Origin: Fistulifera solaris
Lineage: Eukaryota
DNA: 27,166 nucleotides
Reading direction: 5' to 3'
Assembly: GCA_030295235.1 (NCBI GenBank)
Contig: AP026144.1
Span: 868,001 to 895,166 of the forward strand
In this document: positions 6,198-27,166 of the stretch, piece after piece
Layout: each line of letters starts with the position of its first letter
How positions within the stretch are numbered: the first letter of the stretch is position 1
Translations under genes and position numbers: made by a program
Notes under the pieces: generated by a model
What the model saw: the letters and a program-made list of their open reading frames with translations, nothing else
Told to the model about the DNA's origin: nothing
The model's database searches: none

Positions 6198-6440
6198 CTT
6201 TTATTGACTTGTGTCTGTGGTTTGTGATCGAATGTTGCAATTTGTTCTGTGCATGCGTTGTGCGTTTTGAAAACGAATTTTCCCCCCAGCGCGACAGTCT
6301 GTCTGTCGGACATCGGCATTCGGACGAAATAATATGGGCGACGATTACGAAAACCATGCGCTTCGGTACCCAGTCCCTAAGTAAAATTCATCGTTACGTA
6401 TCAGGTACTTTTTACTTTGTAGTCACACCCGTTTTCACAC

Positions 6441-6462
6441 GATGATGATGATGATGATGATG
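6441..6462. repeat. (GAT)7 microsatellite in a divergent intergenic region
   Basis: gatgatgatgatgatgatgatg read directly. Confidence 0.9.
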
Positions 6463-6542
6463 CTGTGATTGTTGTTCTGTTTGTTTATAGTCAACGAATC
6501 GTATCCTCTCACTTTTTGACTTACTTCCGAGAAAGAACCACC

Positions 6543-7005
6543 ATGAAGGAATGCAGTAATACGGCCGAAACAGCCGCAATCGATCAGATCGCTTGCATTC
6601 TGAGTTACAACGGAACTGTTCTGGATACGGTTTTGAATTACACAATCTTGGCCGCACATGTGTACGCGGACCGTATCGCAACCACACGTCGTTCTACCGC
6701 AACCACTCTTTCCTGCTTCCTATTCGTTTTTGGGTTTCCAAATTGTCTTGTGCTTGGTGGTTGGATGTTCCGGCATCTCCATCATTTGGTGTGCTTGTTT
6801 GGGATGGCAGTATCGACAATTGCCTCTTTGGCTGGGTATTCTTGACGGCCTTCTGCTCTTGTATTATGCCGTTACAGCGGAATGGATCACAACCATCGCA
6901 CATGCTTGTGCGATTGTCTTGGGTCAAGGACTCTACGCGATGTCGATGTGTTTGGAAGATTCGTTGCATCAACGACCTATGTATCGCCCCATTGACACGA
7001 AATGA
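6543..7005 (+). CDS. Hypothetical small multi-pass membrane protein (~150 aa), with a frameshift near 6665-6695
   Basis: ATG 6543 gives MKECSNTAETAAIDQIACILSYNG... and appears to continue in the +1 frame as hydrophobic segments FLGFQIVLCLVVGCSGISIIW, LLLLYYAVTAEWITTIAHACAIVLG. The join is inferred. Confidence 0.5.
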
Positions 7006-7113
7006 AGGAAAGAAAAATAAGAAGGAATGATTCGCGGTTACGATGAAAATATGCGGAATCTAAGATCAATCTACATACATCAAGAAATGACTGTCGTGGG
7101 AACTACTTTTCAG

Positions 7114-8044
7114 TCACTTCCCAGTCAAAGTCTTGCAGCATTCGTTTTCACAATCAGGTGTAGGCGGGGATATCGCTTTCGCGTTTTTGACACAACACGT
7201 CGTTGCGCAACAGTAGCAACTACCACAAGAATGCAAACATTCCGAATGTTTCAACAACAGGATTTCAATCTCTTCCAGATCACTCGATCGAAAGATCCAG
7301 TACATCACATACCACACCAAAAGGAGCATTCCCCAAAAAGCCCCATAGAAAGCTTTGAACCATCGTGCTGTACACTTTTGATGCTGAAGCATGGTTGCAA
7401 TGTCTTGCCAGTGGTGCAAGGCTCGACTACAAGAAGGATGGACGTTTTGTTCGATCCATGCGGTTTGCAAACAATCACTGGGAAAGGTTGTAGATACTAA
7501 CGGATAGGACTGACTCTCAATGAAATCTTCCGTCAAGTGACGGCGACTGGTTGCTGTGCGAAGATATTGTGGTTCAGCAGACGAAGTGGTACTAGGAACT
7601 GAACTTGTTGGTGATATCGCTGAGTCGGGTATATTGCGTTTTTCAATGCTGGAATCCATCAATTGAATCATGTGAGGTGCACTGTCTCGTTCTAAAGACA
7701 AAGTTAAAGTCCAGGCATCCATTTGCGGCGTTGATACCGTGTGTGACGGCTCGGATGAGGAGACTGATTCGCATAGTTCCCGCTCATCTCGAAGACACAG
7801 ATCGTGCGCCGCTACGTACGCCGCCTCCACATCTTCTAAAGCTCTATTCCAGTAGTCGTTCAGCACTTGATCTGTGAAAATGATTCCATAGACATTGTGG
7901 ATTATTCAAGTTATTGAGAATCGAGTGGAAAGCATTGCAAACAGGTATATATTTTTTTTGTTTCTTACATTTTCGAATGACCGAGACACAGCACGCAATC
8001 GTCAAAAGAAAAGTGAGAAATGACTGAAGCTTTGTCATTCTCAT
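7114..8044 (-). CDS. Cys-tailed membrane protein, paralog A (277 aa; exons 8044-7969 and 7871-7114)
   Basis: Exon 1 MRMTKLQSFLTFLLTIACCVSVIRK is signal/anchor-like. A phase-1 intron GTAAGA...TTTTCACAG (97 nt) joins it in frame to YQVLNDYWNR. A TM segment (FYGAFWGMLLLVWYVMYWIF) precedes a tail with 10 Cys. Confidence 0.75.
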
Positions 8045-9150
8045 TATCTTTCAGAGATACACAACGTATTTGTTTTATCAACTACAATGCATCGATCGTT
8101 TTCTACTGTAGTTATTGCATGGTCTCGCCATGACAAATGAGAATCCATAAAGCTCTTTTTTCATCATCTCTCCCCGTGATCCTTTTTCTTCAAAAACTCG
8201 TGCAAATGAATGTCAAAATATCAATGCCGCTGTTCGACGGTGTTCTTTGTCGTACTCAAAAGTTTACAGTCTTTTTCACATGCGTCGCTGTCTGTGTTCC
8301 AACGAACAATCTTACCGGTTCCAAATATTTTATCTGGCGAATATCCACTCATGACTGGAAAGCAGTCATGAAGAAAGGTCGCCGACATTATTTATTTGGG
8401 TTTACCAGTAGAGCAAATTTAAAAGATAACAATTTTTACAAGACTTTTCGACCGTGAAGAGTCGATGCGTGAAGTTCAAATGCTATTGTTAATACTTGGG
8501 TCGGATATAAAAATACTTATCATTAGTTGACAAGCTTGCAGAACGAGCAGAGTTCAACTACCGTATCAGTCGAGCTCTGGGAGAATGCGCTTGGCGAGAC
8601 TTGAAGCGCACCGCTTTCCTGCTGACCAGCTACACTGACTCCTTGAACGAGTTGGTTCAGTCAGCAGTCCTTGGTGTCACAGAACTCACTGATGAACATG
8701 ATAACAAGTTGTCGGTTGATTCTTGTGAGCGATCCTCTCGGTTGAAACGTATTAGAACGAATTATGACAGAGAATAGGATCTCTAATTCAGTCGCGAATT
8801 CGGTCAGAGTCCTTCGTGGCTCTGGTAAACGCTTGGCTTGGAATCACCAGTAAAACCAAACAGCCAGATAACGAAGCATGACTCTTCTATGCGTTGTTGT
8901 TGACGATGTTGTTGAATGAATCTAGGCTACATATTCTCCGTTTTTAAATTTCACCAGTTTGATTGGTAGTGGACTTTTCTCCTACTAAATCGAGTTCAAT
9001 CCCGAGTTAAACTGCTAAACTTGTCGAAAAAAATTGTCAAAGAGAAAACATTGTAGACTACTACTGGATAAAATGAATTTTGGATATACATATATTCACT
9101 TATAGAAATAAACTTGAGATCCTCGTCTGTCTCTCTGATTGATTACCACT

Positions 9151-9310
9151 TTACGAGCTACTAATGTGCGTTTTGCAACAAGGACACTCGGAGCAGCAGT
9201 TGCAATCACCCGAGCGACTGTTATCGTTTTTACAGCAGTGACAGTTGTCACCGCACTTGCAATCAGGGGGAGCCACATGGGCAACGAGTTGTAGGCGCGG
9301 AGGAAGTCAT
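9151..9310 (-). CDS. Metallothionein-like protein (52 aa, 13 Cys), needing removal of one base from the G5 run at 9266-9270
   Basis: Manual translation: MTSSAPTTRCPCGSPDCKCGDNCHCCKNDNSRSGDCNCCSECPCCKTHISSS*. It has CxC and CxCC motifs, no Phe/Tyr/Trp, and two Cys clusters separated by a polar spacer. Absent from the ORF track. Confidence 0.75.
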
Positions 9311-9811
9311 GATCGCGGATCGATCTGTCTTGATTCTTTAAGAAAACGGGACATGAAAAAATGAGAAAAGCAGTGTAACGATCAAACGGCAAAGACAAAC
9401 ACAACAAGAAGAAACTTTTGACGCTTAATTCACAGAACAACCTCTTCCTATGAGATTCGTACCTCCTCGTTTGTGAGAGGAGAATGAAAGTAGGATGCAA
9501 AGTTTTGAACGTAAGGTCGTGTTCTCATGGTTCACGCTTCGGAAAAGAGATTACGGCGAAATCCATAGAAGAAACCATTTACGATAGAGCTAAATGGTCT
9601 TCCTTAAAAGGTGAACTCGTCCGATGAGTGATCCTGCATAACCGATGGTAAAGAAATACTTGTTAAAGAGTGACTTTTTAAGTGTACGTGACCCAAAAGA
9701 GGATTCACAGTCAGAACCACAAGGTAAATCAATTTTTTGACACACGGGCATAATGTAGAATATTGAGTAATAGGCGATGATTCCTCAATCGTCATCTTCC
9801 CGAACAGACAA

Positions 9812-11103
9812 TTATACGACAAGTATGCGAATCGGCATTTCGTCACTATTCGCAATGGGCAGATTGGAAGTGGAGGAACATCCACCACCACAGCAAGAAG
9901 CACAAGCTGCACTACAAAGGCCCGTGCCCTTGCAACAATTGCAGCAACTTTCTTCCAGCGTTGGATTGTTGGAAGAAGTCTTGCAGCAGCAGCAAACACA
10001 AATATCGGTACCCTGCGCATCGCGGTTGCTCGCATGTTTACGCTCCGAGCAGCAGCAGCAGCATGTGCCGGAGCAGCAACCATCACTGCAGCAGCAGCAA
10101 TCTTGAAAGAAGCACTTGTTTTCGTGGCAGCAACCATTTCCACCGCAGCATCCACCTGCGCTGCAGCAACATTTTCCGGAGCAACATCCACCTGAATTGC
10201 AACAACCATCTCCACTGCAGCAACATTTGTTACCGGAGCAGCAGCCGTTACTCGAGCAGCATTTATCGCAGCACGAGCAGCAAGAACAAGCGTCTCTTGT
10301 CGGAACCAATCGTTTCATGATTCGATAGAGCATCCATACGGCGTAGGCAAACCACATGGCACAAACAAATACCAGCACTGTTTGACACATCCATTTATGC
10401 AAATTTTGCATTTCCCGTGCGTTCTGCAAATGAGTTAAGGCTCTGCTACACTCGGGACGCACACCTTGTTCCATCCAAGCCAAGTACAAGCAGATATCCG
10501 GGAAGGGGGATGACGACTTGTGCGTGCAGGGAGACAACTCTTCTGTCAAACGACGGTGGCGCATAGTCTCGCTGCGCAGTTGAGGATCTTGTATCTTTGA
10601 GACAACATCCGAAGGCGATGCTTGGGTAGGCAATGGGTGATCTTGGGCTTGTTCGTCTTGGTTATGATTCTCCTGAAGTCGATTGTCATGAATCCAAATC
10701 CAAGTGGTCGTAGAACCCACAAAGTGCGGAATACTTTCGGCTTCCTGAGATACCCACAAAAAGGTCATCAAAAGATTCGCTTCTTTCATAAGGAACGAAA
10801 GTTCGGGGGTATTGTAGTAACGCGGAGATTCACAGAATCGCCATTGATCCAGCTGACACTGTTCCTGGGCCATCTGATACGCCACGGCGACGTTTTTCTG
10901 CGTCATGTTCCACGACTTTTTCATTTCATGTACTAATTGCGTTTATGAGGGAGAATATAGGGTGAAAGATTGAACAAAACGTAGACCAGACAGAGTGTCA
11001 GTCTACCACATCTTGTGACACGCTAGATCTTCAACATTTTATTTTGCTTACATTGATAAATGTTCGCCAAGAGAACGATCGCCAAGCCGTACATTTGCTT
11101 CAT
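9812..11103 (-). CDS. Membrane protein with a very Cys-rich metallothionein-like C-terminal tail, paralog B (390 aa; exons 11103-11052 and 10932-9812)
   Basis: Exon 1 MKQMYGLAIVLLANIYQ, phase-1 intron GTAAGC...ATTAG (119 nt), then LHEMKKSWN. TM segment VLVFVCAMWFAYAVWMLY, followed by ~49 Cys in ~136 aa arranged as CC, CCC, CCCC and CCCCC clusters. Confidence 0.8.
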
Positions 11104-11644
11104 GTTATTTGTGCTTCTTATTTTGTATAGAGAATAATCGATAACAGAAACCGCAACACTTCGTAATGAACAAAGAAGGTTGCCGATGAGAAATGAGGCA
11201 GCAGCGGCGGTGTTAATTTTACACAAAAGTCGTGTAGAAAAATGTACTGTTCCAAGCATCAAGTTCCGCGACGATGCCATTACTTTGTATTATTACAAAG
11301 TATTTTATGTGTTCCGAATGTTCAGTCATGGGTCAAGGCTTTCAGTCACGAATATGAACGTTCTACAGAATTTTTGTCGCACCAGGAACAAAACAAGCGA
11401 TTTTCTTTCGACCTTTGCGATGGTCAGCGATGCCGAATCGGCACTGCTTTTGTACTCTCGCAATAGCCCACGTCACCAGCGAACCGGTTGGCGCTGTTGA
11501 ATTTTTTCGAAAAAAGGGCCCGGAAAAGACAAAGCACAAAAACCATTGGCAGTTTGTGTTTTCATGTTATTCGTTCTTTCTTTTGTGTTTGTTTGTAGAA
11601 ACGTCTTTCTATTCAGTCATAATATAAACTCATAAAGAAACAGC

Positions 11645-12745
11645 ATGACAAGATATCTGATAGTTTGGGCAGCTTTCGTGGCAACGACGTCGTATGCCTT
11701 TGTTACGAGAATCGACTCGACTTTCTCATCGATGCGTTTGCATTCGTCGCCACAATCGCAACCCGATGGCCGTTCAGCCGTCAGTTACAATGCTCTGAAT
11801 AATATGCCTCCTCCTCTTCCTCCTGGGTTTGCGCCGCCCGGTGGAGAACTAGCTCGTCCTCCTCAGCAGCAGCCGTGGCAACCTCCTCAAGAACAACAAG
11901 TGTGGCAACAACAAGCTCCTCCACAACGAGCCGGTCCTCTCAATCCAGATGACAACTGGAGACGTCCTCTTCAGGTCGACAATTATCAATACCGTACCGT
12001 TCAAGGAAATAGTCGAAAAACTTTCAATACGATGGGAGGTCGCAATGAGGTCGAATTTTCAACGGATGGACGTGAGCTTTATACCGACATGGAAGTGTGG
12101 CAGGGCCCTGACAACACACCGCAAACAATGAAGTGGTATGCTCAGGATGGAAATCATCGCATTCGTGCGACGGTGACGTCCACTCAATACCATTCCATCG
12201 AAACTAGAAACAGGGGAACGCTCGAATTCCCCATGAATGTACAGATGCAACCACAGGCACCCGGTTCTCCAACGAAACAACAACACCAACCCTTCCACGG
12301 CACTAATTCCGTTCCTGCTGTCGAATTTCGTCCCATCCCAAGTCACGAAGATCGCATGGCGAAACGCGATCCCAGTCGCGGCACGACCATTCAAGGAGAT
12401 GGCAGTGTCAAAACGTACCCGATTGACCCCTACACTTCCAGTGTCCAAGTATTGCTCGACGGGCAGGGATTTCCAGTATATGCCCGTATTGAGTTGTTGC
12501 AAGGTCCAGATTGTGTCAAAATATTGGGTGAATTGTACAACGATGGCTTGCAAAATGGCGGTGAACCGGTCCGGACGGTTTTGGAAACACCCGGATACGG
12601 CAGTACACTTCGTGTGGTCAACACGGGACCGATGGAATATCCCATCATTTGCACCGTCGCCCCAGCTTCGTATGGTGAACCAGTGAACAATTATCAGCAA
12701 CAGCAGAGTGTTTTCGATTCGAATGGACGGTATATTGGGTACTGA
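11645..12745 (+). CDS. Uncharacterised protein with two internal repeats and a signal plus transit-like presequence
   Basis: Signal MTRYLIVWAAFVATTSYA|F has Phe at +1 (ASAFAP-like), followed by a Ser-rich transit-like segment and a Pro/Gln-rich linker. Two repeats share QG..KT, E..QGPD, Y..DG and N.G..E(F/Y)P. Confidence 0.8.
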   Translation: MTRYLIVWAAFVATTSYAFVTRIDSTFSSMRLHSSPQSQPDGRSAVSYNALNNMPPPLPPGFAPPGGELARPPQQQPWQPPQEQQVWQQQAPPQRAGPLNPDDNWRRPLQVDNYQYRTVQGNSRKTFNTMGGRNEVEFSTDGRELYTDMEVWQGPDNTPQTMKWYAQDGNHRIRATVTSTQYHSIETRNRGTLEFPMNVQMQPQAPGSPTKQQHQPFHGTNSVPAVEFRPIPSHEDRMAKRDPSRGTTIQGDGSVKTYPIDPYTSSVQVLLDGQGFPVYARIELLQGPDCVKILGELYNDGLQNGGEPVRTVLETPGYGSTLRVVNTGPMEYPIICTVAPASYGEPVNNYQQQQSVFDSNGRYIGY

Positions 12746-13145
12746 GAGACAGACATGCAAGCTAGAGTGAAACGATGACCTTCTGCTATGAAAATACTTT
12801 AAGCCTCAGTAGAATTAAATAAAGAGAGCGATTTAACAAGAATGCTTTGTATTTGTTTGTTAAAATAAAACTTTATTCTTCGTATCCGTAGTTCGATGGA
12901 GAGTTAAAAGCAATTCGCTCGCAACAGTACTCAACGGACACCCAATGTACATTGTTTGCCGTAGTCGTTACAAAGTACTCTGTATTGGTCGCCTGGGAAC
13001 TGAAGTAGCCTTCTGATATTTCCGATGACTGTTTCCTGCCACAAAACGAAAACAAAAAGAACCTGTTTGCCCTTCATAAACACATTCATCAAGCAACAAG
13101 CGTTTCTTTCCCATACATTGACCGTACTAAAGATACAGGAAAGAA

Positions 13146-14564
13146 ATGCGACATTACAGGTGCTTTTTAGGTTGTCTGCTGCTTCTTTTGCAGCAAAAAG
13201 CACAAGGGGAGGTCATTCGACAATCGGCACATCGGAAAATACAAGCAACAATCGACGCCACAACAGGCGATCTTACTGTTCTTGCTGGAACGGACTTTTG
13301 CTGTTCGAATGGTCTTCGTACAGCAACTTCGTCGACCAGCGCGGCCGCGAAGAATCGTCGGAAGTTGAATACTCAACCGCATATTGGATGGACCGATCCG
13401 GGTGATTGGGTGGCTTACCCAGTAGAAATAACTTCGGCCGGTACGTATCATGTTCACTTTCATGTATCCAGTCCATTTGGTGATGGAGGATTTGAGTTGA
13501 TGGATTTACAAACGCAACAGTTATACGGCACCGTGGATACCATGCCCGTGACTACGACCTGGGACACGTTTGAAACTATTTCTCTGCCCGTCACATTGCC
13601 GGCCGGTCTCGTTTCGTTGCAAGTACGACTTTTATCAGCAGGTTGGAATCTGTTGTGGCTGGCGGTAAGCAACGAGGATAGTGTCGGAAGCATTCCGGGT
13701 GTAATTGTACCCCCACCGTCGCCGGCTATAATTGTATCTCCTGATGCCACTGTCACACCCTCATTACCCGCTGTGAGTAACCCAGCTACATTGTCCGTAG
13801 CTCCAAGTGTGACAGTGGCACTCGATGAGATTACGTCTTTTCCGTCCCTGAGCAGTTCCTCTTCAGGAACAATCATCCCAACCCCAAATAATGCAACGTC
13901 TCCGGTTGTTCCAATGCCGACACCGAATACAAGTGTCACATCTTTGATTCCTTCCACGCCGGTTAACGCCCCTGTTCCTACAGGTTCGGCAACAGTTCCG
14001 TCACCTCTAGCCAATGCTCCAATTTTATCGCCCTTGGCTACCCCGACTTCCACACTGCCCAGCGTTCCAGCCTCTAAACCAACACACAACAAACGCCCGT
14101 TCTTACACGAGTTTATAACGTTTGAAGATTTTACGCGCACATCTCCCAATATTGTATGGCAAACGAGTGAAACGGAACAACGCACGCAAGCTGTTGAGTT
14201 AAAGACAGGCGATTGGTTGGAATTTCAGTTGGCAATCCCTGTGGCCGGGCCGTATCAAGTACACGTTCGCACGTCGAGTCCTAGTGGAGAAGGCTCGTTT
14301 GAGCTGGTACACGTCGAGATAGACGAATTAAATAAACGCGAAACGGAAGTTCCTTTGGGCATATTTTCGGGATTCCCCACAACTGGTTCGTGGGAAGTGT
14401 ACCTTCGAATGGAACAAGAAATAAATTTACCAGCCTCACCTTTAAACATTGGCCTGTTGATGCGCATCAATGTATTGGAGCCAGGATTCAGTCTATCGTG
14501 GCTCTACGTGGAACCTAGTGATTTATGGGACGCAATTGATGCTAGAGACGATGGAAATGTTTGA
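13146..14564 (+). CDS. Secreted protein with two CBM6-like carbohydrate-binding modules joined by a Pro/Ser/Thr-rich linker; no catalytic domain seen
   Basis: Signal peptide, then IGWTDPGDWVAYPVEITSAGTYHVHFHVSS...TTTWDTFET...GWNLLWL and LKTGDWLEFQLAIPVAGPYQVHVRTSS...TTGSWEVY...GFSLSWL. Both fit the CBM6/CBM35 beta-sandwich pattern. Confidence 0.8.
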   Translation: MRHYRCFLGCLLLLLQQKAQGEVIRQSAHRKIQATIDATTGDLTVLAGTDFCCSNGLRTATSSTSAAAKNRRKLNTQPHIGWTDPGDWVAYPVEITSAGTYHVHFHVSSPFGDGGFELMDLQTQQLYGTVDTMPVTTTWDTFETISLPVTLPAGLVSLQVRLLSAGWNLLWLAVSNEDSVGSIPGVIVPPPSPAIIVSPDATVTPSLPAVSNPATLSVAPSVTVALDEITSFPSLSSSSSGTIIPTPNNATSPVVPMPTPNTSVTSLIPSTPVNAPVPTGSATVPSPLANAPILSPLATPTSTLPSVPASKPTHNKRPFLHEFITFEDFTRTSPNIVWQTSETEQRTQAVELKTGDWLEFQLAIPVAGPYQVHVRTSSPSGEGSFELVHVEIDELNKRETEVPLGIFSGFPTTGSWEVYLRMEQEINLPASPLNIGLLMRINVLEPGFSLSWLYVEPSDLWDAIDARDDGNV

Positions 14565-15154: not shown

Positions 15155-16013
15155 AGCCATCAATCTCCTTAGAAGCATTGCGCCGTCGTTTTTCATAGCT
15201 TGTAGTTGGAACTAAAGTGTTAGACTTGAAACTTGAGATAGACCACGATAGTTTTTCGAACCACTGGCGATCTGTCGTACCAGGTAACGTACATTAACGT
15301 ACATGCTTGTCGCTTCTCTATAAGCCCTGACCAAACTCTAGGAGCGTTGTGATCCCTAGTCCCTCTAGTGACCCGATTCTTTTCTTCCCATTTAAATTAA
15401 AGAAAATAGCCCCTTCTGAATAGCTGTAAACGAAGACAAGAAATAGTCACAGAGCAATGGAATTGTTAAAACACGTGCCGAACTATAAATTGTTATGTTT
15501 GATGTTTGTTCCTGGTAGTCTGGGGTAGTTGTTCTCATTTATTTCGTCTTCAAGATGCAAACGATAAAGATACGTACAAGGGATTCCAGATTTAAGCAAC
15601 TTTTTTTACAAAAATCTCGATATAATCCCAACTTATTTAAAACTTTAGTCTTAGAGCTTCGGACTCGGTCCTAAATTTCTGATACAAGAAAAGTCATTAC
15701 GTAGCTGTTTAGACGGACGCTTGGGGTGGGTATAAATCCTGAAGTGTTAAACATCTTAGGTGATTACGCCGTATTTATCTACCGGTCAAAATTAAGCTCC
15801 ACAAGGGCAAATATCCTGCCGACACCGAACCAATTAGAATAGATGGTAAAGTGTAGTCGGTCTTCGTTAGGCTTCGTCTTTAAGAATAGCTGATCGTAAA
15901 AGCCCTTCCCGAACCGAGAAGCGACAAGACGTCTCACACAAATTCACGTTTGTTGCCTCTCTTTATTTTGTTTCGTTTCTTCATTTCCTTGCAAACGAAG
16001 ACAACAACAAATC

Positions 16014-17606
16014 ATGTACCGATCACTTCTGATTGGTTTATTCTTGACGTTAGCCTCTCAAGCATCTGCGGAATGCGACGGCACTTGTACGCCCGACGGC
16101 GAAGCCTGTCAAGTCGACGGAAAGCCGTGCTGCGAAACGGGAAGCTCCTGTTACGGATTCAACTTTTACAAGAAATGTCAAACCCCACCTTTGTGCTTAC
16201 GCGAATGGTATGACTGCACGAGTGGAATGGCGGGTAACGTGCCGTGCTGTGAAGGCATGGAATGCGTTTTGGGTGACGGCGAGCAATACGAGTGTCAACA
16301 CATTTACGAGCCTATTGCTGTAGAAGGCTTTGCGACTACTCCCGTTGCTCCTGTGGCCCCTGTTACTGCTCCCGTGACACCTGTCTCTGCTCCGGTTGCT
16401 CCTGTTGCTCCGTTAACCGAAGCGGCCGTGATTAAGCCATGGTCGCCTGCCGATGAAGGCTATTTGTTCTTTGCCAACATGACCAACGCGGGTGTACAAG
16501 ATCCTACTGCCCCCAATTATCAAGTTGCTGCCAAAGCGTACATCAAAGCGGATTGTGCGGGTCCTCACTTGTGCATTTACGTCATGGCAGAGCCCGGTGT
16601 GGCTCTTTCGTCGACAGAAGGGTGGTTCAAAGACTATACCTATTCTACTGCTTCTATTCCCTTTGTCGCACCCGGATTGACCTACCGCGAAGAGAATGGA
16701 GTGATTGTAGGATGGTCCGGTTGCGTGACTGTTCCTTTCGATAAAGGTGCAACCGGATTGGGTGTCGAAATCCACGCCAATTGGGGACTAAAAGGTTCCA
16801 ATTCACTCGGCAACACGGCTTCCACCGGCAAATCGGGAACCACTTTGGTCACAATGGACTATCCTGTGTGCTTGAAACCGGCCTTTGTGGAAGGTGAAAC
16901 CGCACCCGTGGCAACCGCTCCTCAAGCGACACCGGTGGCCGCTCCCAGCGCCCCAACACCCACGGCGGCGGGTGCCCTCGGAACCGCACCTACTCCTGTG
17001 ACTTCGCCTGTCACAGCGCCCATTCCGTCACCGGTTGCCGCACCGGTCCCTGTTACAGCAGCCAGTCTCACAGATAAAGGCTGGACTCCACTCTTCAGCA
17101 TGTACAACGCCGGAAACCCTGACACAAAAAGTTCCAACTACCAGTTGGCGGGCAAAGCGTGGTACAAGTACGACTGTGCGGCGCGATTGATTTGCTGGTT
17201 GGTAATGGCCGAGCCTGGCTTGGAAATTTCCGGAACGGAAGCATGGTTCAAGGATTATGGTCGTGGTAACAGTGCGATAGAAGCGGTCGCTCCCGGTATC
17301 ACCTTCAAGATGACCAACAATGTCCGCACGGGCTGGACTGGATGCTTCTATGAGCCCCTCGGCGCAACGGGGTCCATTGAAGTTCACGCTAATTACGGAG
17401 TCGCCGGCAGCGGAAAACTCGGCAACACCATGTCGACCGGTAAATCGAATACTTTGGGCGGATACGCCACGATCGACTACGATCACCATTGCGTTGGATT
17501 AGCTCCCACTTGTGCGGCAGCCGGTGCTAAATGCAACGGAAGTATGCCCTACTGCAACGGACGAACCTGCCCGACCTCCGGAAACAAAGTGTGTCCGAGC
17601 AAATAA
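16014..17606 (+). CDS. Secreted modular protein: two Cys-knot-like modules, Pro/Val/Ala/Thr linkers, two ~140-aa repeats of an unrecognised domain, and a C-terminal Cys module
   Basis: Signal MYRSLLIGLFLTLASQASA and C-C-CC-C-C modules. The repeat pair shares M.NAG..D, NYQ.A.KA, DCA, VMAEPG, WFKDY, VAPG.T, GW.GC, E.HAN.G and LGNT.STGKS. Confidence 0.85.
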   Translation: MYRSLLIGLFLTLASQASAECDGTCTPDGEACQVDGKPCCETGSSCYGFNFYKKCQTPPLCLREWYDCTSGMAGNVPCCEGMECVLGDGEQYECQHIYEPIAVEGFATTPVAPVAPVTAPVTPVSAPVAPVAPLTEAAVIKPWSPADEGYLFFANMTNAGVQDPTAPNYQVAAKAYIKADCAGPHLCIYVMAEPGVALSSTEGWFKDYTYSTASIPFVAPGLTYREENGVIVGWSGCVTVPFDKGATGLGVEIHANWGLKGSNSLGNTASTGKSGTTLVTMDYPVCLKPAFVEGETAPVATAPQATPVAAPSAPTPTAAGALGTAPTPVTSPVTAPIPSPVAAPVPVTAASLTDKGWTPLFSMYNAGNPDTKSSNYQLAGKAWYKYDCAARLICWLVMAEPGLEISGTEAWFKDYGRGNSAIEAVAPGITFKMTNNVRTGWTGCFYEPLGATGSIEVHANYGVAGSGKLGNTMSTGKSNTLGGYATIDYDHHCVGLAPTCAAAGAKCNGSMPYCNGRTCPTSGNKVCPSK

Positions 17607-22219: not shown

Positions 22220-25178
22220 TTACTTAGGACGGCACTGACCGTTGGTGCACACATCCTTTGTCGTGTCACAGCAGGGCATCGTACTACTGCAAGCATTCCA
22301 CTGAGGAGCACACGATGGTTGGCACTGTCCGTTCTTGCAAGCAAAGCGACTGCTGTTGCAGCAACCGGCACCCGCCGAGCAAGGCTGCCAGTCGTTGGCG
22401 CAAGAAGTCACTGTAGGCTTGCACTGACCACCTTGGCAACTGTAATTCTTTGAGCAGCAACCCTTTGTGCTACTGCACGAGTTCCAATCAAAGGCACAGT
22501 TCGGCTGACAGGTTCCATTCGTGCACGCGTAACCACTGTTGCAGCAACCAAGTGTCGAAGTACAGGGCTGCCAATCATTTCCGCACGTGGGTTTCGGTTT
22601 GCAAGTTCCACTTTGGCACGTGTACGAAGTATCACAGCAACCGAGTTCCGAAGTGCACTGCTGCCAGTTGCCACCACACGTCGGCTTGGGCTTGCAAATG
22701 CCTCCTTGGCACGTGTGAGTGCTGTCGCAGCACGGTTGATCGGCACTGCATTGACCCCAGTTGCTTGCGCAAGCGGCCTGGCACTGAGAAGTGGTGTATC
22801 CCCTGACTGTCGGTGAACGAAAGCGCATTTCAACGGCTTGGGACCATCTTGGCAACACCCAACATACGCACAGCTTTGCCATTCGTTGACACACTTGGGA
22901 AGTTTGCGACCACGAACTGCGTCCGTGCACTTTCGGTGACGCCGCGTCAAACCATCACAGCATTTGAAGTCGGCACTGCAAACTTGCCATTCATGGGCTT
23001 GGCACGTAGGGACGTTACGGCCGCGTCTTGCGCTGCGAGTGAACATCGGTGGCGCATTTGAGGCCATTGCAACAATCTACTCCGAGACTGCAGTCTTGCC
23101 ATTCGGGCATGCACGTGGGAAGATTCACGGCATTGCGGCGATCCATCGGGAAGCTCGACACACTTCAAGCCATTGCAGCAGCCGACATCTTTGCACGAAC
23201 GCCATTCGGGGCATGCAAGTAGGAAGATCCATGCAAGTTTTGGGCCCCCAAGGTTGTTGGACGCATTTTAATTTTCCACAGCAGGGAGTAAGAGTACCAC
23301 AGTTGGCCCATTCACCGACACATTGTTGTTCATTGATTACACATTCCTTGGCGAAACCGTTGACTTGAGCACATTTGAGACCACTGCAGCAACTCGAAAC
23401 GTCGCATTCACCGCCCTTTCCATTGCATGTCGTCGCCACGGCTTTGCGACTCTCGATCGTACTCGCTGCAGCTTCCACTCCCATTAAACGAGCATCAATG
23501 ATGCACAAGAGTTCGTTCTTGCAAAGTTCTTTAATCTTCGGATCGACATCGAGGAGATATTGGTCCACAGTGCTACCGTGCGGCAAGTTGCAATGCATGA
23601 TATCTTCAAACCAGTCCAAACCGAGTTCCTTGTGCGCAAAGAGGGAGTCGGCTTGTTCGCGAATACACCAATGGGTGGTACAGTACTCGTAGCCAGCCCA
23701 ACGCAATCGGTCCGTTAACGACGTCGGAACCGGCAACAATTCACCATCTCGTGTCTTCCAATCGTTTGAGGTGTCGCCATCTGCCGAACCGAACATACCA
23801 GTAGTCTTGTCGACATCCGGAACATGCGTGCAAACTTCAAAATAGCAACCATTGGCGTAAGCGACGTTGGCGGTGACTTTGAATTGCGACGCCGTGTAAA
23901 GAATTTCGACAGTTTTACGTGTCCAAGTGACCTTGACCTTGGGAGAACCGGAACCATCGTTCAAATCGCGCTGAACGCCATCGACATAGAACAAAACTTT
24001 GCAGCTCTCTTGTCCAATGGTGTTGGGCGCGAAAGAATCGGGAAAGATGGGAAAGGAAAGCTCAACCTTGGGCGTATCACCTTCATCTTGAGTGACAAAA
24101 CCCTTAACGACCGCCCATGCCCTGTAGAGATAAGAATTAGCAAGGAATGTTAGACGACTATAGTTTCAATGACAAGCAGTTGACTCCAAAACTCCACCGC
24201 CCTTTCGACCTACCATCCTGGACTGAAAATATCGGCAAAGAATGCAAAACGACCTTGGACTTCACGCTGCGTGATGGTCGATTTCATCAAAGTGAACTCT
24301 CCTTCGGCTCTGATGGATAACAAGTCGGAGTGAGGTCAGATTCAAGTCAAATTTCGCCAAATTTTCGCCCACAAAGAGATCCACTTACTGGCAATCATAA
24401 GCTAACGGTGGGTTGAAAGTAAAAAGTTTGGTGTGAGGAAAGTTGGTGGAATAAGATAATGAGAGATATCACGAAAAAACTGCAAGGCAAACCCAAAGCA
24501 AAACAGCACATTCAGCAACCAAACCCAAACCCCGCGATTTTTTCTCACCAAGACCATCGAAACTGGAAAGGAGGTGGTGTGAGATAATGAGAAATAGAGA
24601 TATCCGAACGGAAAAACGAAGCAAAAAATCACCTGTATATATGCGGATCACCGACCGCACACGCGGTCTTCGTTTTGACTGCTGCTCCAGGAATAGCCGT
24701 CGTCTTCAAGTTTGGTCCGGTGGGTGGCAAGGTCGGAGCCGCCGTAGGAATTTTGACCGGAGCGACAGGAGCCGCAACGGGAGCGGCCACAGGAGTCGGC
24801 ACAGGAGCTGGTACAGGAACCGGAACAGGAACCGCAACTGGAGCACTCGTTGAAATGAGATCGGCCCCCGTCAGATTGGTTTGGAGGGTGCGAACTTGGC
24901 ATTCGCTCACACCACCTTCTGTAACGGCACAGACGAGATCTCCACAGCAGGGCATTGAATTGCTGCAATCGTACCATTCAGCGAGACACGCCGGAGGAGT
25001 GCGGCAACGCTTGAAAAAGTTGTATCCGAAGCAACCAAGACCATCGCAGCAACCGTCTAGGTTGTGCGTGCATCCTATCATTCTCGGCGATGCAAGTGCT
25101 TTCCGCGCATTCTTCCGCAGCTGTAAAGGAAACAACAACAGCTAAGAACAGAAAATACAAAGATCTTTCGATCTGCAT
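22220..25178 (-). CDS. Large secreted GDPH/VWD-domain protein with 2 N-terminal and ~12 C-terminal cystine-knot-like repeats (exons 25178-24633, 24562-24549, 24401-24389, 24309-24214, 24121-22220; several indels)
   Basis: Signal MQIERSLYFLFLAVVVSFTAA. Splicing four GT-AG introns yields CAVGDPHIYSFDGLAYDCQAEGEFTLMKS. Downstream lie the VWD-type TTGMFGSADGDTSNDW and repeats of C-xxx-W-xx-C-x(4-5)-CC-x(4-6)-C-xn-C. Indels occur near 25072 and between ~22780 and 23210. Confidence 0.85.
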
Positions 25179-26697: not shown

Positions 26698-27166
26698 TTA
26701 GGGTTAGGGTTAGGGTTAGGGTTAGGGTTAGGGTAAGGGTTAGGGTTGGGGTAAGGGTTAGGGTTAGGGTTAGGGTTAGGGTTAGGGTTAGGGTTAGGGT
26801 TAGGGTTAGGGTTAGGGTTAGGGTTAGGGTTAGGGTTAGGGTTGGGGTTAGGGTTAGGGTTAGGGTTAGGGTTAGGGTTAGGGTTAGGGTTAGGGTTGGG
26901 GTTAGGGTTGGGGTTAGGGTTAGGGTTAGGGTTAGGGTTAGGGTTAGGGTTAGGGTTAGGGTTAGGGTTAGGGTTAGGGTTAGGGTTAGGGTTAGGGTTA
27001 GGGTTGGGGTTGGGGTTAGGGTTAGGGTTAGGGTTAGGGTTAGGGTTAGGGGTTAGGGTTAGGGTTGGGGTTAGGGTTAGAGGTTAGGGTTAGGGTTAGG
27101 GTTAGGGTTAGGGTTAGGGTTAGGGTTAGGGTTAGGGTTAGGGTTAGGTTAGGGTTAGAGGTTAGG
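26698..27166 (+). repeat. Telomere, (TTAGGG)n, ~78 units with scattered variants
   Basis: G-rich strand runs 5'->3' to the window end, as expected at a right chromosome end. Variants TAAGGG, TTGGGG, TTAGGGG, TTAGAGG and TTAGG are present. Confidence 0.99.

Follow-up and report, generated by a model that had tools for sequence, protein, structure and literature searches.

The DNA analysed here, referred to as the window, is a 27,166-nucleotide stretch of Fistulifera solaris, an oil-producing diatom (GCA_030295235.1, contig AP026144.1, positions 868,001 to 895,166), and all coordinates given below are window positions. This copy of the locus is designated C22 and its homoeologue C21. Three genes of interest are located on the minus strand in the order gene B, a metallothionein-like peptide gene and gene A; the same order occurs in C21, the two subgenomes of F. 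solaris being those for which the linkage is shown. The adjacency of B, the peptide gene and A is older than the hybridisation of the two subgenomes. A preliminary description of this DNA had read the three genes as consecutive; all three do lie on the minus strand, but the remnant of an unrelated plus-strand gene (8511..8777) separates the peptide gene from A. The match of this remnant covers 8574-8630, and a longer, likewise broken form is present in C21, where the equivalent interval is approximately 1.7 kb longer.

Gene B consists of exon 1 (11052..11103), carrying the start codon and a hydrophobic leader that may be a signal peptide or an anchor, and exon 2 (9812..10932), separated by a 119-nt GT..AG intron in phase 1 (10933..11051). 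The spliced joint 10932/11052 is present in contigs of the RNA-like run X2, and the 390-aa product is identical to the database protein P0020 (FisN_7Lh398). Exon 2 encodes a putatively luminal four-Cys hairpin, an RRL motif of the RxL type (10547..10555, residues 144-146) in the loop that separates Cys 2 from Cys 3, a membrane helix predicted from hydropathy (10325..10381, residues ~202-220) that is followed by RIMKR, and a 170-aa Cys-cluster tail (9815..10324). The tail, like those of the relatives discussed below, was delimited with a crude hydropathy scan; 49 Cys were counted in it, in agreement with the approximate figure first proposed. It has 26 CC pairs, with 29% Cys and 1% aromatic residues, closes with a hydrophobic motif of the IxxxV type that several relatives share, and brings the Cys content of the whole protein to 56 (14%). 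In a comparison of the homoeologues, 45 of 46 aligned tail Cys were kept versus 86 of 118 non-Cys residues, and the dN/dS of the tail was 0.42, versus 0.14 for a TLC control gene.

Gene A is likewise encoded by two minus-strand exons, the first (7969..8044) with the start codon and a hydrophobic leader whose flanking charges are balanced, and the second (7114..7871) with the predicted luminal four-Cys hairpin, a membrane helix and a 59-aa tail. The intron between them (7872..7968; 97 nt as assembled, GT..AG, phase 1) has the same position as that of B, and the joint 7871/7969 was found in contigs of the RNA-like runs X2 and X3. A second intron of 102 nt (6977..7078, GT..AG) lies in the 3' untranslated region, 35 nt past the stop. 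The RxL motif of A reads RHL (7534..7542, residues 136-138) and is RRL in the C21 copy, and the helix is predicted at 7294..7350 (residues ~200-218). The spliced 277-aa model bears out the 10 Cys expected after the helix; they make up 17% of the tail, all 10 are kept between homoeologues, and the whole protein holds 17 Cys (6%). A and B are paralogous, as had been proposed, with 34% identity over query residues 5-201 (E 1.6e-13), and are old tandem paralogues and real spliced genes. Cover in the contigs of X2 and X3 was deep for A (hundreds to thousands), thin for B (~2-19) and lacking for the peptide gene, a contig depth that cannot rank genes and a missing cover that proves nothing. Small shares were present in the freshwater and wetland runs X5-X7.

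The metallothionein-like gene (9151..9310, minus strand) contains 13 Cys codons, and its frame is broken by one extra base as assembled. An intact copy was found on another contig, C40 (G000:C40:75378-75536), and encodes a 52-aa peptide with 13 Cys (25%), no F, W or Y and no leader, in which the Cys are spaced CxC-x4-CxC-x3-CxCC-x9-CxCC-x2-CxCC. Metallothioneins are defined in section 5 of PMC7216689 as proteins of at most 300 aa with 15-35% Cys and less than 10% aromatic residues; the C40 peptide falls within this definition and carries the CxC/CxCC motifs. Whole A and B fall outside it, with a leader, a membrane helix and 6% and 14% Cys, while the composition of the B tail fits it and that of the A tail does so marginally. 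The peptide resembles gene-encoded metallothioneins, which form at least 15 convergent families, in its size, Cys share, lack of aromatics, CxC/CxCC motifs and lack of a leader, whereas B resembles them in its tail alone and is otherwise a 390-aa membrane protein.

All 13 Cys are kept in each of the three copies (C22, C21 and C40). The coding region is 91% identical between homoeologues, versus 77-82% for its flanks, with a pN of 0.066 and a pS of 0.174, and in neutral simulations the probability of keeping all 13 Cys codons was 0.004 at a divergence of 0.17 and 0.0001 at 0.28. Since Cys are retained between homoeologues and the neutral probability is low, the Cys pattern of the tails and of the peptide is not a matter of chance. 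The identification of the middle gene as a metallothionein thus holds up by composition, motifs and selective Cys conservation, and judging from the sequence it is probably a real, so far unannotated diatom metallothionein that would bind metal. Searches with the peptide gave no Pfam family at E up to 1, no candidate relative among the 28-91-aa proteins of a set of 5.8 billion, no exact match in the protein collection, no match in a PDB sequence search and none in metagenome scans with its motif, the scanned collection being one from which near-identical records may be missing. Because metallothionein families are convergent, a missing family match does not exclude a metallothionein. A descent of the peptide from one of the family tails found no firm support: alignment scores with the B tail were not above shuffles (p 0.39-0.43), those with the A tail were borderline (p 0.03-0.05; with Cys fixed, 1 of 11 tails gave p <0.05), and neither tail showed any likeness at the DNA level.

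The 52-aa, 13-Cys product proposed for the middle gene is supported by the 13 codons and the C40 copy, but the window ORF, which begins with the ATG at 9310, stops after 15 codons at an in-frame TGA (9265-9263). The frame shifts by +1 at a run of five C (9266..9270), and the remaining 11 Cys lie in the shifted frame. C21 has the same +1 break, and the C40 copy is in frame. As C40 resembles C21 by 95% but C22 by 72% in the region upstream of the gene, an old break shared by the homoeologues would have required a reversion. The phosphoglycerate kinase gene likewise carries homopolymer frameshifts on C22 and on C21, within ~10 bases of each other, further 1-base coding indels were found between the homoeologues, and a DNA-like short-read contig crossing the C run showed two gaps, one of them placed at 7952, where it has one base fewer in a run of eight T. 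With the C40 copy intact, all 13 Cys kept and like homopolymer breaks in neighbouring genes, the break is most likely a homopolymer assembly error.

We consider it improbable that the break is real, in which case the copies between A and B would be recent pseudogenes and the C40 copy would do the work, or a programmed +1 frameshift would restore the product. The identical shift in both homoeologues and the existence of an intact duplicate favour this, as does a short-read contig of the C40 type at about twice the single-copy depth (39.2 versus 17.8), a poor measure of copy number. It is countered by the retention of all Cys, by the absence of further disabling changes from the two copies, and by the homopolymer indels that disrupt other genes in both homoeologues. 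Programmed frameshifting at CCC-UGA / CCC-CGA is much less likely than pseudogenes and can be given hardly any weight: the C22 context UCC CCC UGA resembles antizyme shift sites, but in C21 no stop codon stands at this position.

The copy on C40 is part of a duplicated segment of ~1.07 kb (8713..9782) that comprises the upstream region, the peptide gene and the downstream region, and it was copied alone, without A or B. On C40 the segment is embedded in an array of a ~210-bp dispersed repeat, which marks the B-A interval as the older location; that interval was the one ancestral peptide locus found in the 51.7 Mb genome. An ORF adjoining the same repeat on contig C13 may be that of a Helitron; it had no Pfam match.

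A and B are members of an undescribed family in diatoms, whose proteins are predicted to be membrane proteins of the secretory pathway. Among 1.84 billion proteins 18 hits were obtained, 16 of them true members; P0016 and P0018 were unrelated repeats and were dropped. Word-based homology searches returned 1 and 3 proteins and are too insensitive to bound the range of the family. Members share a leader, a luminal four-Cys helical hairpin around the RxL site, one to three membrane helices (mostly one or three; two alignment rows were scored as having two) and a Cys-cluster tail, the topology being predicted. Cys3, the Leu after it, Cys4 and the Leu of 'AL' are invariant in all 21 rows of the alignment, Cys1, Asp and Cys2 are kept in at least 90%, and the RxL+T/S/A+E/D pattern occurs in 14. 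Tail Cys number from 0 to 53, with 6-14 in 15 of the 21 rows. Three rows (P0011, P0015 and P0017, two of which are perhaps truncated gene calls) have 0-3, and the family can therefore do without the Cys tail. In distant members the C-terminus is formed by a YEGVPIQ-type motif.

The predicted structure of A has helices at 2-37 and 145-214 and a loop (40-125) below pLDDT 50, and the family models reached pTM 0.44-0.45. Structure comparison gave best VIA Z scores of 8.4 (P0017; rmsd 3.2, 82 aligned) and 8.1 (A; rmsd 3.7, 69 aligned), all to generic helical hairpins, and no fold was assigned. Foldseek returned 0 matches at E 0.001, the PDB sequence searches no match below E 0.19 and the ESM Atlas no usable match for A or P0017; none of the 16 members matched Pfam, CYSTM included, and 0 of 183 metagenome candidates were confirmed, again in a collection that may lack near-identical records. 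The pattern C..D...C / CL..(11-12)..C..AL of the GLG1/MG-160-type repeat (PF00839, Cys_rich_FGFR) is also seen in the core of the A/B family. Against 11 bacterial PF00839 repeats, a small template set, the core with its loop left out gave an hhalign probability of 37.5% (P 3.5e-4), versus 1% with the loop kept. Ten of 16 cores beat all 20 Cys-fixed shuffles, A not being one of them, and none of the 16 members reached the PF00839 cut-off on the compact ~58-residue unit. A PF00839 search of the genome G000 yielded 0 candidates, the controls being silent too. GLG1-type repeats have an insert of ~12 residues, whereas the A/B family has a single unit with a 45-113-residue insert that carries the RxL.

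Two other groups were compared with A and B. Silicanin-1 (Sin1), as described in PMC5525289, has an RXL 30 residues past the signal peptide and an NQ-rich domain of 341 aa that holds 18 Cys. With further secretory proteins of diatoms that bear RXL and are treated there, Sin1 is like A and B in its leader, RxL, luminal Cys and single membrane helix. In A and B, by contrast, the RxL lies at residues 136-146, four luminal Cys are conserved and a Cys-rich tail is predicted in the cytosol, and they do not classify as silicanins. CYSTM proteins, as described in PMC10840359, are 60-150 aa long with 5-6 terminal Cys and a palmitate anchor, and have been linked to metal tolerance. CYSTM/CYSPD proteins share with A and B a membrane association and a Cys-rich C-terminus, but a leader, a luminal domain and a true helix, together with 10-49 tail Cys, place A and B outside the group.

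Metallothionein thiolates bind metal in clusters, and by this stoichiometry the 13 thiolates of the 52-aa peptide, predicted to be cytosolic, would wrap ~4-5 Zn/Cd ions or one Cu(I) cluster. The leader would direct the N-terminal region of A and B to the lumen. There, two helices would be stapled by the four conserved Cys, presumably as disulfides, around a long disordered loop whose RxL site may be a substrate of the diatom RxL protease. The membrane helix would then set the Cys-cluster tail in the cytosol. In B, a family core of 6-14 Cys appears to have grown by CC-rich repeats to 49-53 Cys, and such a tail could act as a membrane-tethered Zn/Cd/Cu thiolate sponge with room for up to ~17 divalent ions at ~3 Cys each. 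A metal-binding role of this tail is plausible from its composition, and by analogy a tethered sponge is most likely what it is. The analogue is the C-terminal extension of the plant P1B-ATPase HMA4, in which di-Cys motifs bind zinc with nanomolar affinity (PMC6255694); both proteins have a long tail with many CC pairs past the membrane domain, cytosolic in HMA4 and predicted to be so in B. B, likened to HMA4 by layout and not by sequence, differs in having one helix, 29% Cys and no ATPase or transporter domain. Cleavage at the RxL of B may occur as in the proteins treated in PMC5525289.

Cys clusters directly past a membrane helix are typical acylation sites, and the tails of A and B might be S-acylation and trafficking signals, with metal handled by the middle peptide only. 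We regard this as doubtful. The YEGVPIQ-type end of the distant members, which looks to us like a sorting signal, the 0 to 53 range of Cys number over the family, and the palmitoylation of yeast CYSTM Cys clusters (reported in PMC10840359) agree with it. In B, however, 49-53 Cys spread over 170-180 polar residues and conserved at 45 of 46 positions are far beyond the need of acylation, the first Cys lies 12 residues past the helix and the clusters extend to ~20 residues before the end; acylation is more plausible for A than for B. It is very unlikely that the topology is reversed or the tail shed, making it a luminal or extracellular, disulfide-cross-linked structural polymer of the cell wall, like keratin-associated proteins. 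The (CC-S/G-x-G)n repeats of B do resemble ultra-high-sulfur structural proteins, the leaders may be uncleaved anchors, and many wall proteins of diatoms carry RxL motifs as a mark (PMC5525289). The basic RIMKR after the helix of B, the four-Cys core and RxL on the N-terminal side of the helix, and an odd number of helices (one or three, apart from the two rows scored as two) that keeps the tail opposite the core all point instead to a cytosolic tail.

It had also been suggested that the locus is a co-regulated module, in which a free metallothionein and the tethered A and B stay linked and are jointly induced by Cu, Zn or Cd. This suggestion was not borne out and now appears unlikely. In its favour, the two subgenomes share the arrangement B - peptide - A, the location of the peptide gene next to B predates that on C40, and the sole ancestral peptide locus found lies 501 bases from the 49-Cys gene. 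A-like and B-like proteins of another record also seem to sit on one 18,310-base contig, which suggests an A-B linkage there. Against this, the conserved promoter 6-, 7- and 8-mers common to all three genes numbered 12, 2 and 0, and 21, 8 and 55 of 55 control triples matched or exceeded these counts, in a comparison of low power in which the PGK control was misplaced. The element TGCRCNC was present in 0 of 6 upstream regions. The unrelated remnant intervenes between the peptide gene and A, and the peptide gene moved to C40 by itself. Cys tails also occur in unlinked family members such as that on C13, whose 10-kb locus showed no small Cys-rich ORF of the peptide's kind; searching the genome with the peptide gave no match there either. 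Three other same-contig pairs (64,725 and 118,258, probably the same pair, and 3,854) suggest ordinary tandem duplication, and family members seem to sit habitually in tandem pairs.

A more elaborate form, in which a metallothionein of a new family and an RxL-processed protein with a tethered, giant 49-Cys metallothionein tail are clustered and co-induced for two-tier sequestration, is in our judgement improbable; if true, it would concentrate Zn, Cd or Cu at the plasma membrane or at that of a vesicle. In a eukaryote, co-regulation of such a cluster would be unusual, and it is so far unsupported. The locus probably holds two separate things side by side, a metallothionein gene and the A/B family, and not one regulated unit. 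As a whole, we somewhat favour a reading in which the peptide is a genuine, new metallothionein of diatoms and adjoins a family in which the B tail would be a membrane-tethered thiolate sponge, the two being separate units. If the genome has no other gene of the peptide's type, the position of this one beside the 49-Cys gene is a coincidence that this explanation leaves unexplained.

Metal tolerance of diatoms is usually ascribed to phytochelatins. In section 5 of a 2020 review (PMC7216689), T. pseudonana is the only diatom listed with a predicted metallothionein, so that one diatom genus is represented there. The peptide gene is an unannotated, selectively conserved metallothionein candidate of a kind that gene callers miss, and our literature search found no description of a membrane protein that has a single helix and a 49-Cys tail but lacks a pump. 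The supplements of PMC8779346 contain predicted metal-binding proteins of F. solaris, which might include A or B. Expression studies and metal analysis could test the peptide and B directly, and PMC13276009 is listed as giving a CRISPR method for F. solaris.

The assembly of F. solaris, which is described as an allopolyploid diatom (PMC5935921), consisted of 62 contigs totaling 51.7 Mb. A TTAGGG telomere array (26699-27166) closes the window, which places the locus at 16-19 kb from the chromosome end. The region is also present in a diverged form, with approximately 80-86% DNA identity, on the homoeologous contig C21. As the preliminary description had stated, the two membrane-protein genes are paralogues, and both products carry Cys residues after a membrane helix. 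Their identity is 34%, and both genes have a phase-1 intron 3' of a hydrophobic first exon. Gene B (exons 11103-11052 and 10932-9812, minus strand) encodes 390 amino acids, with a helix around residues 202-220 and a 170-residue tail containing 49 Cys; gene A (exons 8044-7969 and 7871-7114, minus strand) encodes 277 amino acids, with a helix around residues 200-218 and 10 Cys downstream of it. Both introns are skipped by RNA-like contigs. Among F. solaris proteins, FisN_7Lh398 is identical to the B product and FisN_7Hh398 corresponds to the C21 copy. The transcript continuing from A (6800-7113, minus strand), whose 3' UTR contains a 102-nt intron, overlaps antisense a membrane-protein gene on the plus strand (6423-7005). 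A contig from the freshwater metatranscriptome run X5 differs from gene A at only 2 of 641 bases (7135-7775), so fresh water may harbour a lineage very close to A's subgenome.

A profile of the N-terminal parts, searched against 1.84 billion proteins, matched 18, of which 16 were true members; P0016 and P0018 contain unrelated repeats and were rejected. The named members are F. solaris hypothetical proteins, further members are encoded on C13 and C14 of the same assembly, and the taxonomic range looks narrow. This is an undescribed membrane family, real and testable. Its members begin with a leader and a helix ending in C..D...C, followed by a disordered loop of 45-113 residues, the second Cys pair in P..CL..aW....v...C..AL continuing into a long helix, one to three membrane segments, and a Cys-cluster tail. 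For A and the member P0017, AlphaFold predicted a helical hairpin with an unstructured loop (pTM 0.44-0.45). The loop contains an RxL motif in 14 of 21 alignment rows; this motif is described for diatom secretory precursors, from which it is taken off by an unknown protease (PMC5525289), and if it were cut here the halves would stay disulfide-joined. In the pattern of its four Cys, the family is similar to the GLG1-type repeat PF00839. Remote homology to that repeat is suggestive only, since loop-less cores compared with 11 bacterial PF00839 repeats gave a probability of 37.5%, and 10 of 16 cores, A's not among them, scored above their own shuffles. The members on C13 (L008, 4838-5932) and C14 (L028, 4938-5912) occupy homoeologous positions with merely 32% identity; their close relatives have equal longest contigs in other records, suggesting that the two derive from an old tandem pair of which each subgenome lost a different gene.

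Tail Cys numbered 6-14 in 15 of the 21 rows, 49-53 in three (B and two close relatives) and 0-3 in three. Since the end of the B tail can be aligned over 62 residues, at 49%, with the tail of the unlinked member on C13, the B tail consists of the core common to the family, enlarged by expanded CC repeats; one family member has an expanded, metallothionein-like tail. Between homoeologues, B kept 45 of 46 aligned Cys versus 86 of 118 other residues and differs by insertions of whole CC units, as expected if the number of thiolates counts above a fixed fold. Basic residues directly behind B's helix point to a tail in the cytosol, where free thiols at this density would most likely bind soft metals, in the manner described for the di-Cys motifs of the HMA4 tail (PMC6255694). 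For the short tail of A, palmitoylation, demonstrated in CYSTM proteins (PMC10840359), is a fair rival role.

The middle gene (9151-9310, minus strand) had been described as encoding 52 amino acids with 13 Cys, which holds for an intact third copy on contig C40. In the window, the frame from the ATG at 9310 meets a TGA after 15 codons, and 11 of the 13 Cys lie in the +1 frame downstream of a five-C run; the C21 copy has the same shift in a six-C run. We regard an assembly error as the very likely cause. The assembly is noisy at homopolymers, as judged from three regions. A phosphoglycerate kinase gene (PF00162; 3617-4944, minus strand) is frameshifted near 4050-4060 in C22, the contig of the window, and in C21, in different runs approximately 10 bases apart, probably through assembly errors; the neighbour at 6423-7005 is two ORFs in C22 and one in C21; and a DNA-like short-read contig, otherwise identical over 7420-10709, has one base fewer in the 7952 run and one further, unplaced gap, for which 9266 is one of approximately 11 candidate runs.

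The peptide frame was under selection after the subgenome split: the coding parts in C22 and C21 are 91% identical, compared with 77% and 82% for the 400-base flanks, pN is 0.066 versus pS of 0.174 (8 and 5 changes, which are small numbers), and all three copies conserve the stop and all 13 Cys, three of whose codons carry silent changes. In a neutral simulation, the probability of retaining 13 of 13 Cys was 0.004 or 0.0001. The metallothionein signature was borne out, as the peptide fits the compositional definition (PMC7216689, section 5). No relatives were found in Pfam, PDB or protein collection searches, and the peptide is, by its sequence, a new metallothionein candidate, real and testable.

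The C40 copy lies in a 1.07-kb segment within an array (C40:74289-76068; L012, L013) of an approximately 210-bp repeat, which was matched at least 183 times across the assembly. It brought approximately 450 bases of upstream DNA; this setting and the 95% likeness of the upstream region to C21 indicate a derived copy that left A and B behind. The same repeat adjoins a C13 ORF (L123, 7585-8754) that resembles a Helitron Rep N-terminus and matched no Pfam family. Capture of the peptide gene by a mobile element is possible.

The preliminary description was partly confirmed as an observation and partly supported as an interpretation. B, the peptide gene and A do follow one another in both subgenomes, but an unrelated gene remnant on the plus strand sits between the peptide gene and A, where the C21 interval is approximately 1.7 kb longer. 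The proposed co-regulated metal-handling module is improbable, even though the order is conserved and the sole ancestral peptide locus lies 501 bases from B, the richest Cys tail. Against it stand the remnant, the movement of the peptide gene alone to C40, and the absence of shared promoter words above those of 55 control triples; moreover, Cys tails are a family-wide trait, and family members appear, by inference from equal longest contigs (18,310; 64,725 and 118,258; 3,854), as same-contig pairs in other records. Had the peptide arisen locally from one of the tails, the adjacency would be accounted for without co-regulation; comparison with the family tails did not support such an origin. 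The preliminary description knew of no comparable system, and our literature searches likewise turned up nothing on a Fistulifera metallothionein, the family or this arrangement; passages of PMC8779346, on diatom metalloproteomes, contain no mention of it.

The window ORFs scanned included no recognisable metal transporter. Pfam identified an amino-acid transporter (PF01490; 552-2123, minus strand), a TLC-domain protein (PF03798; 5484-6200, minus strand) and an EamA-like transporter (PF00892; 18416-19750, plus strand). Divergent from B, with approximately 540 bases between start codons, is a diatom pyrenoid shell protein gene (PF25192, E 3.9e-49; 11636-12745, plus strand), and a secreted-looking product with CBM6/CBM35 modules flanking a Pro/Ser/Thr linker is encoded at 13131-14564 (plus strand). 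Three subtelomeric ORFs, at 15900-17606 (plus strand), 22220-24165 and 24629-25141 (both minus strand), matched no family in the Pfam scan; their products are Cys-repeat, Pro/Thr-rich and secreted-looking, and the subtelomeric region has many indels relative to C21.
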